The notes under the pieces: generated by a model
The model's database searches: none
Told to the model about the DNA's origin: nothing
Seen by the model: only the letters and a program-made list of their open reading frames with translations
Shown: positions 23,063 through 29,986 of the stretch, piece after piece
Layout of the letters: each line of letters starts with the position of its first letter
Position numbering within the stretch: the first letter of the stretch is position 1
Program-made: the position numbers and the translations under genes
Assembly: GCA_963699755.1 (NCBI GenBank)
Contig: CAVOVB010000001.1
Coordinates: 1,376,001 to 1,440,000, forward strand
DNA length: 64,000 bases
Source of the DNA: an uncultured delta proteobacterium
GTDB lineage: Bacteria; Myxococcota_A; Polyangia; Polyangiales; Houyiibacteriaceae
Direction of reading: 5' to 3'

Positions 23063-24268
23063 TCAGGACCGAAGGAGCCCGCGCCAGGTCGGCTTGCCGT
23101 CCGCAGGTGCGTCGAGGGGGGGTGTCTGCATGGTGCCGAGGGCGCATGCGTACGCGCTGAGCCTCCCGCTCTCATGGAGGCGGGAGCGGAGCTCCGTGAT
23201 CGATGTGGGGTCTGCCCCGACGCACTTCAGACTCGATCCGATCGATTCCATCGCCTGGATGGCCTGGTCGAGCCCCTGAATCGGGACGATCGTCACATTG
23301 CGATAGCCGGGGCTCCAACGTATCTCCTGGGCTGGGCGGATGCCAAGAGCGTAGCTGGTGCCCTGAATCAGCGTTCCTTCGACCTCGGCCATTCCGCGCC
23401 ACTGTGCTTGCTCGGCGCCAACCGATGAGGGCAGTGGGCCCCTTGGGAGCGTGTCGCTCATCGGGTCGAGGCCCTCATCCGCCAGACGCCGGGCAAAGCC
23501 CTGGGCAGTGAGAGCGGGGGTTTGCTCGACATAGACCAGCTGCGGGGAGAGGCATCCGCGCTGGTCGTAGGCGCAAATGTCGAGAGAAAGCTGGGCGATG
23601 GTGTCACTCAGCCGCGCCTCGCCGAGCGCTTCTGCGCCACAGTACGCCGCGCTCACGCCGTGTCCGTGAGCAATGAGCCGGGCCTTGCCAACCCGGGCCG
23701 CGACCGCGGCGATCGTTTCGTCGCTTCCATAGACCGAAACGGCCTCGGCGCGCTCGACGAGGGCAGTCTCGCATTCGAGGTCACCTCCCGGGAACGTCAC
23801 CAGGTCGACTGCAGCCCCGAGGCGGGCGTCGGCGTCGCGTAGGGCGTCTCGGAGCATTGCGGGGAAGACGGTCTCCCTCGAAGAGGCTTTGACCAGGACG
23901 GGAACGCCCAAGAGTAGCGGGACGACGATGCCGCGCACCGAGGCAGTGAACACATTCCCCGCGAGCAGCAGCGAGAGCATCGAAATCGGAGCTTGCGGGC
24001 ATTCGAGACTTGCTCCGCGGGCCAGGGCGAGCAAGGCGTCCTCCGTCATCGTGTCGAGCGTCGTGCCGATTGCCCAGTCCACCATTGAAGTGCTGAGGCC
24101 CGTTGCTTGCGATAGCTCGGAGCGGCGTAGTCGCCCCCGTTGCGTCAGGGTCTTGGCCGCTCTGGCAAGCCAGAGTGCACGCTCTGCGCTGCCCACGGCG
24201 CGAATGGCGTCACGTGCATCCAGCACGGCGCTGGCTCGAGCTCGAATCGCCGAGGCGTCGTCGATCAC
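23063..24268 (-). CDS. Acyl-CoA/acyl-protein reductase (LuxC-like)
   Basis: AGNVF, VKASS, YGSDETI, HGHG, YDQRGCLSPQ (catalytic Cys); GTGA overlap with luxE-like gene. Confidence 0.87.
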   Translation of the reverse strand: MIDDASAIRARASAVLDARDAIRAVGSAERALWLARAAKTLTQRGRLRRSELSQATGLSTSMVDWAIGTTLDTMTEDALLALARGASLECPQAPISMLSLLLAGNVFTASVRGIVVPLLLGVPVLVKASSRETVFPAMLRDALRDADARLGAAVDLVTFPGGDLECETALVERAEAVSVYGSDETIAAVAARVGKARLIAHGHGVSAAYCGAEALGEARLSDTIAQLSLDICAYDQRGCLSPQLVYVEQTPALTAQGFARRLADEGLDPMSDTLPRGPLPSSVGAEQAQWRGMAEVEGTLIQGTSYALGIRPAQEIRWSPGYRNVTIVPIQGLDQAIQAMESIGSSLKCVGADPTSITELRSRLHESGRLSAYACALGTMQTPPLDAPADGKPTWRGLLRS

Positions 24269-25329
24269 CGTGCCCCCAGGGCCTGGTCTGCGGCAAGCGA
24301 GCAGCCGCGTGGCGTCGCGCCAGCGGCCCGCCCGAGCACGACGATCCCGTCGTCGGCACGTCGCGCCAGGTCGGCGGTTTGAATGCAGCATACCGAATCC
24401 AGATTCGCCGTGTCGTCGATTCGCAGGATTCCCACCGCGTTTCCTTCGACGGGTTGGAGAGTGTCGGGCTCCACCGGCGTTGCGCGCACCCAGGGCGGCA
24501 CCCAGAGCCTGCGAGGCCGAGCGGAACCCTCGATGACCTCCCGCAACGTCGTCTCGTACATCTGCGAGCTGAGCTCGGTCGCCCCGAACTCGTTGATGAT
24601 GAAGGGGGCAGCGATGCCGTAGCGATCTCCGAGCGCCCGAAGCAGTAGGTCGGAATCCACTTCGCGGGAACGCCCCTTGTAGCCACCGGTCTGCATGATT
24701 CGGCTCCCCGGTGCGAGCGCGAAGCGCTGATCGCCGAGCCCGTCCTCGGCATGTACGAACGCGAACGAAGTGCCGAGCAAGGCGATCGCCTCCCCTGACG
24801 CCTCTGCGCTCCGGAGCACCTCGGTGAGGCGCTCGAGGTCGAGCGCGCCGTGACGCCAGGCCCAGGTACAATCGGTCCCGAACCATTCGGCAAATCGCGC
24901 CAACATGTATTCGAGAGAGGAGTCGGGGGATTCGTCTTCTCTTGGAGCCAGCATCACGAGCGGTAGTCTATCGACATCTGGAAAAAGCATTCGGCGCGCT
25001 GCGGCGCGGGCTGCAAGGTCGTACAGACTCAGGTCGGCGTAGACGTGCACGCTGCGCTCGGATGAGGTCGTGCCTGAGCTCCGAAACAGGCGGACATCGT
25101 CTTCCTCAGGGTGCGCCGCGATTCGTCGAAACCGAAAGACGTCGGTTGGGAGGGCGGGCGGCCAGGCTCCGTGACGCTGCAATCGGCCGTATGCTGGGAT
25201 GCGACTCGCTTGCCATGCTCCGAGGTCTTCGATCAGCGCGTCCCGAAGTGCCGGATCGACGTGCTCGCCAGCCTCGAACGCTGTGATCAGCGCTTCGATT
25301 CGGCTCTTGAGGATGGTTCGTTGGGTCAC
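24265..25329 (-). CDS. Acyl-protein synthetase (LuxE-like)
   Basis: RSSGTT, TGGYKGR, EFGATEL, QTADL, LGR...RGCS C-terminal Cys. Confidence 0.88.
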   Translation of the reverse strand: MTQRTILKSRIEALITAFEAGEHVDPALRDALIEDLGAWQASRIPAYGRLQRHGAWPPALPTDVFRFRRIAAHPEEDDVRLFRSSGTTSSERSVHVYADLSLYDLAARAAARRMLFPDVDRLPLVMLAPREDESPDSSLEYMLARFAEWFGTDCTWAWRHGALDLERLTEVLRSAEASGEAIALLGTSFAFVHAEDGLGDQRFALAPGSRIMQTGGYKGRSREVDSDLLLRALGDRYGIAAPFIINEFGATELSSQMYETTLREVIEGSARPRRLWVPPWVRATPVEPDTLQPVEGNAVGILRIDDTANLDSVCCIQTADLARRADDGIVVLGRAAGATPRGCSLAADQALGAR

Positions 25330-26639
25330 GGGCCCCCGAGCGCGTCTCGCAGCGACGCGATGAAGCCCTCGACTTGCGGGTCGGTCACCGTGACCGGCGG
25401 CGCCAGCTGAATCACGTCGGCTTCCGCGCCCGCAGGTAGCACGAGATAGCCGAGTTCGAGGAGCGCGCGGCTGACGTTCAAGGCCTGCATGCTCGTTCGC
25501 AGTTGCAGTCCGAGCATCAGCCCCGCCTGACGTACTTCAGTCACGGAGGGGAGCTGCGCTTCGCGCAGCAGGGCAGCGAGCGCCCCGCCCCGAGCGGCGG
25601 CCCGCCGGGCGAGCTGGTCGCGTTCGATCAGCGCGATGGTGGCAAGCGCCGCTGAGGAACCCAGAGGATCGCCGAAAAACGTGCCCGTGTGAATCGCCTC
25701 GCGGTCCGGATGACCCCATGCCCGCATCACGTCTTCGCTCCCGATGCACGCGCTGACCGGCAGACCGCCACCAAGGGCCTTGCCCGCGCAGATCAGATCC
25801 GGGGTGACGCCTTCGTCGACCGATCGCCACCATGCACCGCAGCGGCCAAGCCCGGTGAAGATCTCATCGACGATCAGCAGCGCATCGTTTTGCTTGCACG
25901 CCCGGCCGAGCGCTTCGAGAAAGCCCGGCGGGGGCAAGCGAACACCCGCGCGTCCCTGAATGGGCTCGACGATCACCGCGCCGATGCTGCCCCAGTCGTC
26001 GGGCAGCGTTCCCAGAGCCGCGTCGACTCCGAGATTGTAAGCGGGCCAAGGTGCGAAGTGTATGTCGCGCTGCAGTTGTGCCAAAAAGGGTTCGCGGAAG
26101 CGCTTGGCAAACCCGGAGACCGCCAACGGACCGTGGCTTAGTCCGTGGTAGCTACCCTCGAATGCGACGACTCCGGTCTTGCCCGTCGCCATGACCGCGG
26201 TCTTGAGCGCCGCTGTGACAGCATCGGCGCCGCTGAGCGAAAGCATGGCCCTTGCTTGCGGCCATGGCGCCAGCGAACAGAGTCGTTCGAGAAGCTCGAT
26301 CTTCACGTCCGAGGGGTGTAGGTCGCCGAGCGCGTGCAAGAGTCGATCTGCTTGCCGCTTCACGGCGTCGACGACCTCTGGATGACGATGCCCGACGAAC
26401 GCCACGCCGAATCCCGATGTGAGGTCGACGTATCGGTTGCCATCGGCATCGATCACGTTCGCGCCCTGGGCCTCGACCCAGACGATCGGATCGTGACTCG
26501 CTCCCGTCAGTTCTTCGCGGCGTTTGCGTCGAGTGGTGAGCGCGGGGCACTCACTTGCCGCGAGGCGCTCTACCCAGGTTTGACCCGCCGCCGCCGGGAT
26601 CGGGCGTCGAATACGTGGAAGGGCTTCACCAGGCTTCAC
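25326..26639 (-). CDS. Class III (omega) aminotransferase, PLP-dependent
   Basis: FEGSYHG, VEPIQG, DEIFTGLGR, AGKALGGG, HTGTF. Confidence 0.93.
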   Translation of the reverse strand: MKPGEALPRIRRPIPAAAGQTWVERLAASECPALTTRRKRREELTGASHDPIVWVEAQGANVIDADGNRYVDLTSGFGVAFVGHRHPEVVDAVKRQADRLLHALGDLHPSDVKIELLERLCSLAPWPQARAMLSLSGADAVTAALKTAVMATGKTGVVAFEGSYHGLSHGPLAVSGFAKRFREPFLAQLQRDIHFAPWPAYNLGVDAALGTLPDDWGSIGAVIVEPIQGRAGVRLPPPGFLEALGRACKQNDALLIVDEIFTGLGRCGAWWRSVDEGVTPDLICAGKALGGGLPVSACIGSEDVMRAWGHPDREAIHTGTFFGDPLGSSAALATIALIERDQLARRAAARGGALAALLREAQLPSVTEVRQAGLMLGLQLRTSMQALNVSRALLELGYLVLPAGAEADVIQLAPPVTVTDPQVEGFIASLRDALGGP

Positions 26640-26655: not shown

Positions 26656-28107
26656 CTATTGGGCAAAGGGTTTCGGCTTCCACGGATAGAAGACGAAACC
26701 GTTTTCACGGGCTTTGCGAAGCATGTCATGCCCGTCGATGAGTAGAACGTCGACTTCCATGTCGTGACGGCGGCTGGCGTCGATGAGCTCTTTGATGATC
26801 GCGGTCACGTTGTCCCGAAAGTTGTCGGCGATCCGCAAGCCGACCGCCGGAGTCGGGTCTCCGCCTTTCCGCGCAACCTCGCAATAGGAGGCCCACTCGA
26901 TCTCGAAAAAGGCCCTCAGGACCTCGGCCATAGTCTTGAGCCAGTCCTCGTTCGGCGCCTCCTGCAGCTCTACCAGCTGGATTCCGTCTCCGATCGAGGG
27001 CCCTACGATTCGCTGCGGCTGCACCGTCCGCGGCTTCGCGTCGGGCTGCGTGAGCTCCTCCTCCTTGGGAGGGGCCGACGCCTTGGCTTTGGGGCTCACC
27101 GGCGGCGGTGGCCCGATGTGCGGGACCGCGGGCAGCCTCAGCTTCTGGGGATTAAATGAAGGCAGGGCCTGAGCGGCTGGTGCGGTCGGTGCATCGGAGT
27201 TGAGCCTTGGTGCATTGGAGCTCAAGGAACGATCTGATTCGGCGTCGCCTTGGTCCTTGGACGTGACGACCATCGACGGAGTGATCGGCATGGACGGCTG
27301 TCCGGCCGTTGGAAAGACGCTGGCCGCGCCATACGTACCGCCGTCACCCAGCTCGGCCTCGTCCGCCTGCACCTCCTCGATCTTCATGTTGGGGGGCTCA
27401 CTCTTGGGCTTGCGTGCAGGGCGCGAGCTCTTGCGCGGTGTCGACGCAGCCTGATCCTTCTTCGGCGCAGCCTCGCTTTGCTTGACGGCGGCCCGCGGCT
27501 GGGTCGGCGGCTCGCTATCATAGGGCATCGCGTACGGCTGCGTCGGCAGCTCGATCAGCGCCGTGATCTTTTCGGCTTCGCTTGGCCCCATGCTGTACAT
27601 GGTCGAGATCCGCTCGACTGGTGGTGGGAATGAGCTTTGCGCCGCCGTCTTCTCAGGCGCTGGCGGGGGTGGTGGTCGCGACGTCCGGAAGGGACCCGTG
27701 CTGTCCATCTCGCGAAGGATCGTCTTGAGCTCGCCGCGCTCGTATTCGAGCGAATGAGCCATGCCGATGTCGATCACGACGAAGGCATACTCACGTGTCC
27801 ACGCATGCCGCAGGATGTCTCCACCGATCGCGCGATGGGTCGCGATCGTTCCGTCGGCTTCCAGCCAGCCGAATTGCTCGGCCGTGGCCTTGAGCACCCT
27901 TTCCGAGCTGAATACCGCGAGAGCTTCTTCACCATTCGTATTGATCAGCGTGCGGAAGCCTTCCGCGCGTGGTTCCCAGGTCGCCAGCCAGACCGGTCGC
28001 AGCGAGAGCGCCTCGAGCGCCTCGGACTTCGGCCTCGCGCCTTTGGCGCCTTCGCGGAGCAGATCGCGAAATGCGTCGCTGCCCCGTTCATCTGCTGGGC
28101 TCTCCAT
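26656..28107 (-). CDS. SseB-like protein with long Pro/Ser/Thr-rich linker
   Basis: N-terminal GEEALAVFSS (SseB-like), low-complexity middle, C-terminal globular domain ending FVFYPWKPKPF. Confidence 0.65.
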   Translation of the reverse strand: MESPADERGSDAFRDLLREGAKGARPKSEALEALSLRPVWLATWEPRAEGFRTLINTNGEEALAVFSSERVLKATAEQFGWLEADGTIATHRAIGGDILRHAWTREYAFVVIDIGMAHSLEYERGELKTILREMDSTGPFRTSRPPPPPAPEKTAAQSSFPPPVERISTMYSMGPSEAEKITALIELPTQPYAMPYDSEPPTQPRAAVKQSEAAPKKDQAASTPRKSSRPARKPKSEPPNMKIEEVQADEAELGDGGTYGAASVFPTAGQPSMPITPSMVVTSKDQGDAESDRSLSSNAPRLNSDAPTAPAAQALPSFNPQKLRLPAVPHIGPPPPVSPKAKASAPPKEEELTQPDAKPRTVQPQRIVGPSIGDGIQLVELQEAPNEDWLKTMAEVLRAFFEIEWASYCEVARKGGDPTPAVGLRIADNFRDNVTAIIKELIDASRRHDMEVDVLLIDGHDMLRKARENGFVFYPWKPKPFAQ

Positions 28108-28175
28108 CCCGATCACACCATCCGATTCACATTGTAATCGTGAACCCGGACCGGATCGCAAGTTTTCTCAGACCC

Positions 28176-28220: not shown

Positions 28221-28293
28221 GCCCAGATAGCTCAGTTGGTAGAGCAGTGGACTGAAAATCCTCGTGTCCCTGGTTCGATTCCAGGTCTGGGCA
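28221..28293 (+). tRNA. tRNA-Phe (GAA), CCA not fully encoded
   Basis: GCCCAGA/TCTGGGC acceptor stem, GCTC/GAGC D stem, CTGAAAA loop, CCTGG-TTCGATT-CCAGG T arm. Confidence 0.96.
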
Positions 28294-28294
28294 C

Positions 28295-29986
28295 CTAGGC
28301 CGGCCGGCGCCGCCGCCTCATCAGGAGGGCGAACAAGGCCAGGCTGGGCCAGGTTGCCGCGTGGGAACGAGGCGACACCACCCCACATCCACACCCACTC
28401 GGCGAGGGGACCGTCGCGTTGTGTTTGGCCAGCGATTGGTCGATCGCGGCGGAGTTGTCTTGCACCACCGAACCGGGCCCGCTGGTCGTCAGCGAGAGGA
28501 CCAGCGCGTTGGCCGGCGGTGTGTCTTCTTCGCCGACGAGGAAGGGCCAGGGGGCGCCTGGGTTCAGACGAACGACGCGGCCATCCTCGAGCTCGAAGCG
28601 CGAAGGGGCCTCCCATCGGTAGAGGCTTCGATGACATTCGATCACGCGGCGGGCCGTGTGGATGTTGGACACCTCGGGGAGGTCGGGGTTGAAATCGAAC
28701 AGCGGGTCCAGGTCCATCTCGGGCGCTGACAGGGTCGTGTAGAAGCGGGTCACGTACGGTCGCGAAAGGATGAGCTCCTGCGTGCTGATCATCGGCTCGA
28801 CGACTTCCTCGCCGAGCGCGTCGATGAACGCCTGCTTGTCCAGGGCTTCGAAGGCCTCGGAATTGCAGCTGGGGCATCCCAAGAACGCATCCGCATCGAC
28901 ACCTTCTGGAAGAACGCGTTCAATCAGCCCTCGGTACCCGTCCCAGCCGATGAATCGACGGCTGCTCTCGGCGAGTAGCTCCGACGCGGTGAGAGCACCG
29001 GCGCTCATGCGCAGCGCCTCCCAGTCCAATCTCTCGAATTCGAGAACGAGGATGCCCTCATAGTCCGAGCTCGGACCGGCGCGCTCCGAGACGAAACCCT
29101 GTCCGCCGGCCTCGTTCGCCGCAGCAATGGCGACCTGATTGTAGTTGCGGCCCCCAGTGAGCCAGTTGATGAGCGCCTGGTTCAGCTCGAGCGCTTTGTA
29201 GTTGACGGGCACGGCGCGGCTTTCGCCGAGCACCCAGACCATCACGCCCATGTCATCGTTGGCCGCTACTGCGGTCGGCCGAATCGGAATCATCGGTTGG
29301 TCGGATTCGTAAGTGATCCAAACCGGGCGAATCGTGCCCGTGTCATTTCCTTTCGTGAGCCGAAACGCGAGCAGATTCATCGCCTCCTGCAGGTACTCGC
29401 CGAGGAGCCGTGCGATGTCGTTTGGGTCTCCGCCGGGTGGCACCACGTCGTAGCCTTCGCCAGTCAGCCATTGGACCGCGACGTCACCGACGTGCTCGAA
29501 GCTCGATTCGGGCTCGATCACCACGTAGTCGTAGGGACCGACGGTCCCAGCGGCGAGCACGTTGACGCCGCCGTTGCCGCCTGAGCCGCTATCGTTGAAA
29601 TTGCCTCCCGGCGCCCCGCTCGACGCGGAATCGTCTCCGCGCTCTTGCTTGCAACGGCCTTCGACTTCCGTCGTGAAGCCATATTGCGGGTTGCTCGCTT
29701 GTTGGAGCCGGGCAAACGCGAGGTCCGACGAGACCTTCACCTCTGGAATTCCGGGCACCGGCAATACCCAGGCGAACTTCTCCGAGGGCCCCTCGTATTG
29801 GATCTGGACGACGGCCGTCACCGTTTGATCTTCGTTCTTCGAGAAGATGATGCGCTCGGCTGCCTGATTGACCGGCGCGGTGGCGGAGCAAAAAAGCCCG
29901 CCACAGGCCTGAGCGGGCATGGGCTGGGCGAGCAGGGTCAGCAGGAGGGCCGATCCGAAACCAGGGAGCAGGCGCAATCTAGACAT
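28295..29986 (-). CDS. DUF2330 domain protein with MYXO-CTERM sorting signal
   Basis: Signal peptide, ACGGLFC, VNQAAERIIF, FAWVLPVP; C-terminal SGCGC-TM-RRRRR. Confidence 0.88.
   Translation of the reverse strand: MSRLRLLPGFGSALLLTLLAQPMPAQACGGLFCSATAPVNQAAERIIFSKNEDQTVTAVVQIQYEGPSEKFAWVLPVPGIPEVKVSSDLAFARLQQASNPQYGFTTEVEGRCKQERGDDSASSGAPGGNFNDSGSGGNGGVNVLAAGTVGPYDYVVIEPESSFEHVGDVAVQWLTGEGYDVVPPGGDPNDIARLLGEYLQEAMNLLAFRLTKGNDTGTIRPVWITYESDQPMIPIRPTAVAANDDMGVMVWVLGESRAVPVNYKALELNQALINWLTGGRNYNQVAIAAANEAGGQGFVSERAGPSSDYEGILVLEFERLDWEALRMSAGALTASELLAESSRRFIGWDGYRGLIERVLPEGVDADAFLGCPSCNSEAFEALDKQAFIDALGEEVVEPMISTQELILSRPYVTRFYTTLSAPEMDLDPLFDFNPDLPEVSNIHTARRVIECHRSLYRWEAPSRFELEDGRVVRLNPGAPWPFLVGEEDTPPANALVLSLTTSGPGSVVQDNSAAIDQSLAKHNATVPSPSGCGCGVVSPRSHAATWPSLALFALLMRRRRRPA

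Follow-up and report, generated by a model that had tools for sequence, protein, structure and literature searches.

The span 23063-26639 of the window (the whole 64,000-nucleotide stretch analysed, taken from contig CAVOVB010000001.1 of assembly GCA_963699755.1, an uncultured delta proteobacterium of the Polyangiales) contains three open reading frames (ORFs) on the minus strand. They encode a class III pyridoxal phosphate (PLP) aminotransferase, a LuxE-like protein and a LuxC-like protein, referred to below as the trio, whose probable part in queuosine biosynthesis is the subject of this analysis:

25326-26639, minus strand: class III PLP aminotransferase gene, 437 aa (PF00202, 297 bits)
24265-25329, minus strand: LuxE-like gene, 354 aa (PF04443, 36.9 bits; cut-off 24.9)
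23063-24268, minus strand: LuxC-like gene, 401 aa (PF05893, 113.6 bits)

Both junctions consist of a GTGA stop/start overlap, GTG being the presumed start codon. In the family alignments, the PLP-binding Lys287 of the aminotransferase is invariant (58/58), as are Lys218, Arg334 and Cys343 of the LuxE-like protein (61/61) and Cys239 of the LuxC-like protein (59/59). The three LuxE-like residues align with Lys238, Arg355 and Cys364 of Photobacterium LuxE, and Cys239 with Cys296 of Photobacterium LuxC, in structure 7XC6; the catalytic roles of these residues are those described in the accessible part of PMC9157457. The gene order, the overlaps and the intact catalytic motifs reported in the first-pass annotation are thus confirmed by ORFs, family scores and alignments. 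The same annotation listed no luxA, luxB or luxD. A scan of 16 window proteins, among them the products of both genes flanking the trio, found no luciferase or LuxD family, and LuxD (PF02273) has no match in the whole genome; for luxA and luxB the search covered the window proteins only. The LuxE-like gene is present as a single copy in the source genome.

The closest solved relatives of the two Lux-like proteins are the Photobacterium phosphoreum enzymes: the best PDB sequence match is 7XC6_E for the LuxE-like protein (E 2.5e-39) and 7XC6_A for the LuxC-like protein (E 3.4e-37). The AlphaFold model of the former (predicted local distance difference test score, pLDDT, 93) adopts a PaaK-like adenylate-forming fold, and a fold search with this model returned the general PaaK-like adenylate-forming group only, at template modelling (TM) scores of 0.4-0.6, giving no clue to the substrate. 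The trio and the Photobacterium LuxC-LuxE pair share the same two families, the catalytic residues and the logic of adenylation, thioester formation and reduction (PMC9157457, accessible part). In contrast to that system, the trio genome has no LuxD and the trio has no luciferase beside it, a family-specific SSLxxM motif is present, and the NCBIfam equivalog cut-offs are far from reached (34.5 vs 550 for the LuxE-like and 24.7 vs 750 for the LuxC-like protein). The C-terminus of the LuxC-like protein ends about 10 residues past the conserved DG motif, compared with 44 in Photobacterium LuxC, and among 74 complete ORFs linked to the aminotransferase, 72 have a tail of at most 25 residues (median 15, with a few genomes counted twice). 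In 7XC6, the segment P460-P488 roofs a long hydrophobic acyl cleft, according to the same part of PMC9157457. Judged from its sequence, the LuxC-like enzyme is without most of this fatty-acyl lid, which argues against a long acyl chain and does not name the substrate.

The aminotransferase passes the PF00202 cut-off and, with its PLP lysine and DE motif, belongs to class III, fold type I; among solved structures, an amino-acid racemase sharing this fold matches it best. Its scores fall short of the cut-offs of all 25 top NCBIfam families shown, including ArgD (TIGR00707, 272 vs 410) and GabT (TIGR00700, 230 vs 507); the separate ArgD of the source genome scores 432. The HGR, QxEGG and VxRx motifs were compared as they are seen in 4FFC and in the ArgD of the source genome; their HGR arginine, QxEGG glutamate and VxRx arginine we take to be the substrate-related residues of GabT and ArgD. 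In the trio family, the arginine position of HGR is occupied by Leu, Val or Met (Arg in 0/58), the glutamate of the GabT/ArgD QGEGG motif is replaced by an invariant Arg230 (58/58), and arginine is found at the late VxRx position in 0/58. The protein is therefore not a plain GabT or ArgD, the case that the earlier reading of this locus had named as fatal to it, since it stays below the equivalog cut-offs and the motif residues are replaced. At four other loci (L254, L267, L283 and L290), a LuxE-LuxC pair lies beside a different class III aminotransferase with an HGD motif, which suggests more than one recruitment event for the amine step.

The three genes are conserved as a unit. Within the order, 38 of 41 genomes carry the LuxE-like gene, and within the phylum 217 of the 261 surveyed do, mostly as a single copy. 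The aminotransferase adjoins it in 30/30 loci from the order and in 36/50 loci picked mostly from distant families, so that the arrangement is not due to chance and the proposed co-occurrence survey of LuxE and aminotransferase finds adjacency to be the rule rather than a rarity. Of the 14 loci in the latter set that have no adjoining aminotransferase, 7 come from a separate LuxE subclade, whose neighbours are homocitrate synthase and aconitase genes. Where LuxE-LuxC pairs are unlinked, an aminotransferase ortholog is located elsewhere in the genome (5/5 genomes tested). Across the phylum, the ortholog (E ≤ 1e-68) is present in 203/217 LuxE-positive vs 3/44 LuxE-negative genomes. Twelve longer homologs were found, 2 of them aminotransferase-LuxE fusions and 10 LuxE-LuxC fusions, which tie the three genes together; most are seen on single contigs, and frameshift errors could account for some of them; none of the 12 is fused to a Que domain. 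One homolog search listed close relatives only.

The remaining gene content of the source genome indicates where such a unit could act. A FolE-like gene is present, together with QueD (over cut-off, with the CxxxHGH motif described in the accessible part of PMC5041015), a QueE-like radical S-adenosylmethionine (SAM) enzyme (274 bits vs a cut-off of 300), adjacent QueA and Tgt genes, and QueG. The Tgt protein keeps the equivalents of Cys158 and Val233, which mark the preQ1-using type (PMC3660597, accessible part). Searches with curated families and our own hidden Markov models (HMMs) detected neither QueC nor QueF in this genome, and the transporters YhhQ and QueT were not found in it either. 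The que genes upstream and downstream are thus kept and QueC and QueF are lacking, as expected for a non-orthologous replacement. The resulting gap extends exactly from 7-carboxy-7-deazaguanine (CDG, -COOH) to preQ1 (-CH2NH2), and the conversion of a carboxyl into an aminomethyl group fits the chemistry of activation, reduction and transamination.

This pattern is readily apparent across the 261 genomes. QueC (E ≤ 1e-20) is found in 4/217 LuxE-positive vs 38/44 LuxE-negative genomes, and QueC together with QueF in 0/217 vs 35/44. Where the LuxE-like protein and the aminotransferase are both present (n=203), 3 genomes have QueC and none has canonical QueF; where neither is present (n=41), QueC occurs in 38 and QueF in 35. 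The aminotransferase ortholog is found in none of the 35 genomes having both QueC and QueF. In 258 of the 261 genomes, a marker of at least one of the two routes is detected, no route being found in G042, G084 and G162. Two of the three QueC exceptions sit in islands with FolE2-HTH (helix-turn-helix) and DndB/DpdB-like genes, and the third lies next to a QueE-like gene on a contig of 2.2 kb; a further QueC-bearing genome, G272, has a LuxE of the aconitase-linked clade only, without the aminotransferase. QueE-like proteins are kept in 216/217 LuxE-positive genomes, with 145 recognised by one family and 71 of the remaining 72 by a second family, and QueA in 69/70 LuxE-positive genomes selected across families. 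Weak QueF-like matches occur in 10 LuxE-positive genomes, and the four examined lack the cysteine of the canonical motif.

Switching between the two gene sets was followed on an RpoB tree (INDEPENDENCE; FastTree). The 78 genomes were chosen with their states known; no RpoB match was obtained for 3 and no sequence was retrieved for 5, leaving 70 (25 with QueC, 43 LuxE-positive and 2 with neither). On this tree, the state changes between the trio and QueC/QueF at least 8 times. G169, which has QueC and a long-type QueF and no trio, is nested inside the trio-bearing family f40, and family f53 is placed among trio lineages. Of seven independent pairs on supported branches, 0 show the trio moving in the same direction as QueC, and about 6 show the two moving in opposite directions (sign test p 0.03-0.06). 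The trio and QueC/QueF are mutually exclusive, with repeated switching across independent lineages of one phylum.

Taking into account this gene content and the conserved motifs, it is likely that the trio constitutes a de novo route to preQ1 free of QueC and QueF, running from CDG through 7-formyl-7-deazaguanine. The LuxE-like enzyme, as an adenylating acyl-protein synthetase, would convert CDG and ATP into CDG-AMP and is predicted to carry the activated CDG as a thioester on Cys343. The acyl group would then pass to Cys239 of the LuxC-like enzyme, a predicted acyl-thioester reductase, which would use NAD(P)H to release 7-formyl-7-deazaguanine. The aminotransferase is predicted to act on this aldehyde, as a 7-formyl-7-deazaguanine aminotransferase, and would deliver preQ1 for Tgt, QueA and QueG. 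By analogy, the types of step follow the established chemistry of the LuxC-LuxE family, continued by a transamination; the Photobacterium pair feeds its aldehyde to luciferase, whereas in the predicted route it would reach the transaminase. Compared with the canonical QueC/QueF route (PMC10570037, accessible part), the predicted start (CDG from FolE, QueD and QueE) and end (preQ1 for Tgt, QueA and QueG) are the same, and both routes combine activation of the carboxyl group by ATP with reduction by NAD(P)H. The enzymes, in contrast, are unrelated, and the trio route would proceed through an aldehyde and transamination rather than the nitrile preQ0, of which it would yield none; in the genomes surveyed, the two routes exclude each other.

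The acid-to-aldehyde-to-amine pathway of the first-pass annotation consequently keeps its ATP- and NAD(P)H-driven logic and its dedicated aminotransferase, and loses its fatty acid, since the substrate is probably CDG. The fatty or alkyl amine proposed there as the product is not supported, as the acyl-cleft lid of the LuxC-like protein is mostly absent and the gene profile points to queuosine. The reverse, catabolic direction is also unlikely, given the ATP that LuxE-type activation consumes to drive the reduction (PMC9157457, accessible part). The idea that the trio nevertheless makes such an amine (an amino-lipid or a signal) in the manner of the tambjamine-tail enzymes, or catabolises one, is very improbable, and the least probable of the alternatives weighed here. 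The model for it is real: in the accessible part of 10.1101/2025.08.11.669332, a LuxC-related reductase (TabE, which groups with LuxC in a sequence network) and an omega-transaminase (TabA) make a fatty amine, and the TabQ/TabE/TabA and TamA/TamH pathways resemble the trio in taking a thioester to an aldehyde before omega-transamination. The statement that no operon of this composition had been characterised must be qualified for TabE/TabA, and holds in that this system relies on an acyl carrier protein (ACP) and has no LuxE. The tambjamine pathways, as described in the same source, further differ in their ACP-bound C12 acyl substrate and their location in a secondary-metabolite cluster; unlike those genes, the trio occurs almost universally, as a single copy, in its lineages. 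The mostly missing lid of the long hydrophobic cleft, the absence of LuxD from the genome, and recurring neighbours of the aminotransferase-linked loci that include no ACP or lipid-gene cluster all argue against a fatty amine. The trio is also kept in G127, a 1.8 Mb single-contig genome without ArgC, and a fatty amine would leave the exclusion with QueC and QueF unexplained.

Two further explanations appear improbable to about the same degree. According to one, the trio would make another housekeeping amine in the manner of ArgBCD, ProBA or HemAL, preQ1 would be obtained by salvage, and the anti-correlation with QueC and QueF would be a lineage effect. It draws on the ArgD/GabT-like character of the best named matches of the aminotransferase, on a published survey in which genomes lacking queF are counted as preQ1 salvagers (25% of 1134 species; PMC10570037, accessible part), and on the presence of YhhQ in 33 of the 70 LuxE-positive genomes selected across families, so that many of them could salvage preQ1, which also counts against the trio route. 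The other 37, the source genome among them, have no YhhQ, salvage gives no reason for the kept QueD and QueE, and the at least eight concerted switches on the RpoB tree speak against a lineage effect. ArgBCD and LysZYJ do resemble the trio in activating, reducing and transaminating with a class III enzyme; they differ in using a kinase and a phosphate reductase instead of an adenylate and a thioester, and they are present separately in the source genome, where ArgB, ArgD, ArgF and ArgG lie together and ArgC elsewhere, along with a HemL-like protein and motif-level candidates for ProA, ProB and HemA. Replacement of arginine, proline or haem enzymes by the trio was rejected, with ArgB, ArgC and ArgD present and ArgC found in 60 of the same 70 genomes. 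The other explanation places the trio in 7-deazaguanine metabolism with different details: another 7-substituted deazaguanine, a fourth, unlinked protein, or several aminotransferase families. The different class III enzyme at L254, L267, L283 and L290, the occasional unlinking of LuxE-LuxC from the aminotransferase and the persistence of QueF-like proteins lacking the cysteine in family f42 are consistent with it; the preQ1-type Tgt, the near-constant retention of QueA, which acts on preQ1-tRNA, and the chemical sufficiency of the three steps are not.

Several observations weigh against the CDG-to-preQ1 route itself. The identities of its substrate and product are drawn from genome context, the survey covers one phylum and mostly draft genomes, and the source genome, listed as 100% complete, is also listed as 9% contaminated. 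The second-family QueE calls comprise 22 over the cut-off and 49 weak ones; 16 of the weak proteins score 70-102 bits with our own QueE HMM, and the two scanned against NCBIfam matched QueE families only, below their cut-offs. The tree was built from genomes of known state, without the three island-QueC genomes and without four of the six that have neither LuxE nor QueC. At the E ≤ 1e-68 threshold, 14 LuxE-positive genomes gave no match to the aminotransferase, and two of them (G272 and G274) are explained. The LuxE/LuxC family also serves other pathways, as seen in its thiamine pyrophosphate (TPP) riboswitch and aconitase-linked subclades, so a LuxE-like gene alone does not mean queuosine. 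Physical clustering with que genes is thin. Within 80 metagenome loci, queG (over cut-off) lies directly upstream of an aminotransferase-LuxE-LuxC run at L254, and queD (over cut-off) directly downstream of LuxC at L308; the aminotransferase of L254 is, however, of the different class III type (YHGD, EGG), and the short contig of L308 carries none. Over genome and metagenome loci, que genes amount to 2 of 193 neighbour genes (rough P ~0.04). In G029, QueE lies 3 kb upstream of the trio on the same strand, a case picked after its coordinates had been seen; the trio appears in none of the 20 queE loci other than G029 and in none of 20 further queE loci. The other recurring neighbours of the trio are unrelated to queuosine and lineage-specific, and no preQ1 riboswitch reached the gathering score in 21 loci (9 + 12). 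A search for phage copies of the trio beside dpdA gave no match in 50,697 phage records, nor in viral contigs (one short pattern only).

The queuosine pathway is taught with one de novo route. Two textbook enzymes of it, QueC and QueF, are lacking in the source bacterium and most of its surveyed relatives. If the CDG-to-preQ1 reading is true, the trio stands in for them, which would fill a pathway hole and reassign many queF-less genomes from salvagers to producers. It would also give orphan LuxE/LuxC genes, annotated as fatty-acid or bioluminescence enzymes, their first housekeeping function outside luminescence, and would provide a carrier-free cascade from a heteroaryl acid to an amine. The protein families and the end product are already known; what is likely new is an undescribed alternative pathway replacing QueC and QueF. 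No link of LuxE or LuxC to queuosine or preQ1 was found in the open-access literature (PubMed Central and bioRxiv full text), with supplements and subscription papers outside the scope of the search. In a broader perspective, we regard it as likely, with somewhat less confidence than the route itself, that this nitrile-free LuxE/LuxC-transaminase route to preQ1 is the majority route of the phylum, that many presumed salvagers are queuosine producers, and that LuxE/LuxC enzymes are general small-heterocycle carboxylate reductases, of which bioluminescence would be one specialisation and thiamine salvage and others further offshoots.

Some additional features were observed around the trio and in the surveyed genomes. 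A minus-strand gene at 26656-28161, located 16 nt upstream of the aminotransferase, encodes a protein with a long low-complexity middle, and its position next to the trio is conserved in close families only. An SseB-like N-terminus is seen in a relative, and the gene is probably not part of the trio pathway. Upstream of the operon, on the opposite strand, lies a tRNA-Phe(GAA) gene (28221-28295, plus strand), which is not a queuosine-bearing tRNA. The RNA data, one run with 5% of words present as short pieces mostly from related strains, are uninformative on expression. The assembly of the window contains two full rpoB copies (G000:C1:1666061 and G000:C7:331582), which agrees with the contamination of 9%. 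Several families of the phylum carry a divergent QueE-like subfamily whose scores stay under every NCBIfam QueE cut-off (L219-L234). The QueF-like T-fold proteins lacking the cysteine belong mainly to family f42 (L109:5650-6231, L110:6115-6696, L111:5083-5664 and L112:5516-6133). The islands carrying QueC resemble dpd-type 7-deazaguanine DNA-modification islands (L114:6417-12995 and L115:283-4931), with QueC (two copies in L114), a QueE-like protein, FolE2 fused to HTH, and DpdB/DndB-like proteins.

Two offshoots of the LuxE/LuxC family were also noted. A separate subclade (support 1.0, altered pocket motif; L136, L137, L138, L149, L150, L157 and L158) is found in clusters that contain aconitase subunits and, in most cases, an FAD oxidoreductase; L136 and L138 also carry a B12 radical SAM gene and homocitrate synthase. 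It probably represents a putative chain-elongation and reduction pathway. Plasmids of Pantoea, Azospirillum, Lactiplantibacillus and Priestia carry operons of a LuxE-like gene, a LuxC-like gene and a short-chain dehydrogenase/reductase (SDR) gene with ABC or NCS2-type transporters (L102:6776-10321, L103:6559-12695, L104:1390-6321 and L105:6812-12648). In the accessible part of the OarX paper (PMC11223231), lux is not mentioned and OarX is left unassigned. By analogy, this plasmid sister subclade suggests that further small heterocyclic acids may be reduced by members of the family. The operons are candidates for the salvage of oxidised thiamine moieties from acid through aldehyde to alcohol, and a TPP riboswitch lies upstream of them in 3 of the 4 loci.

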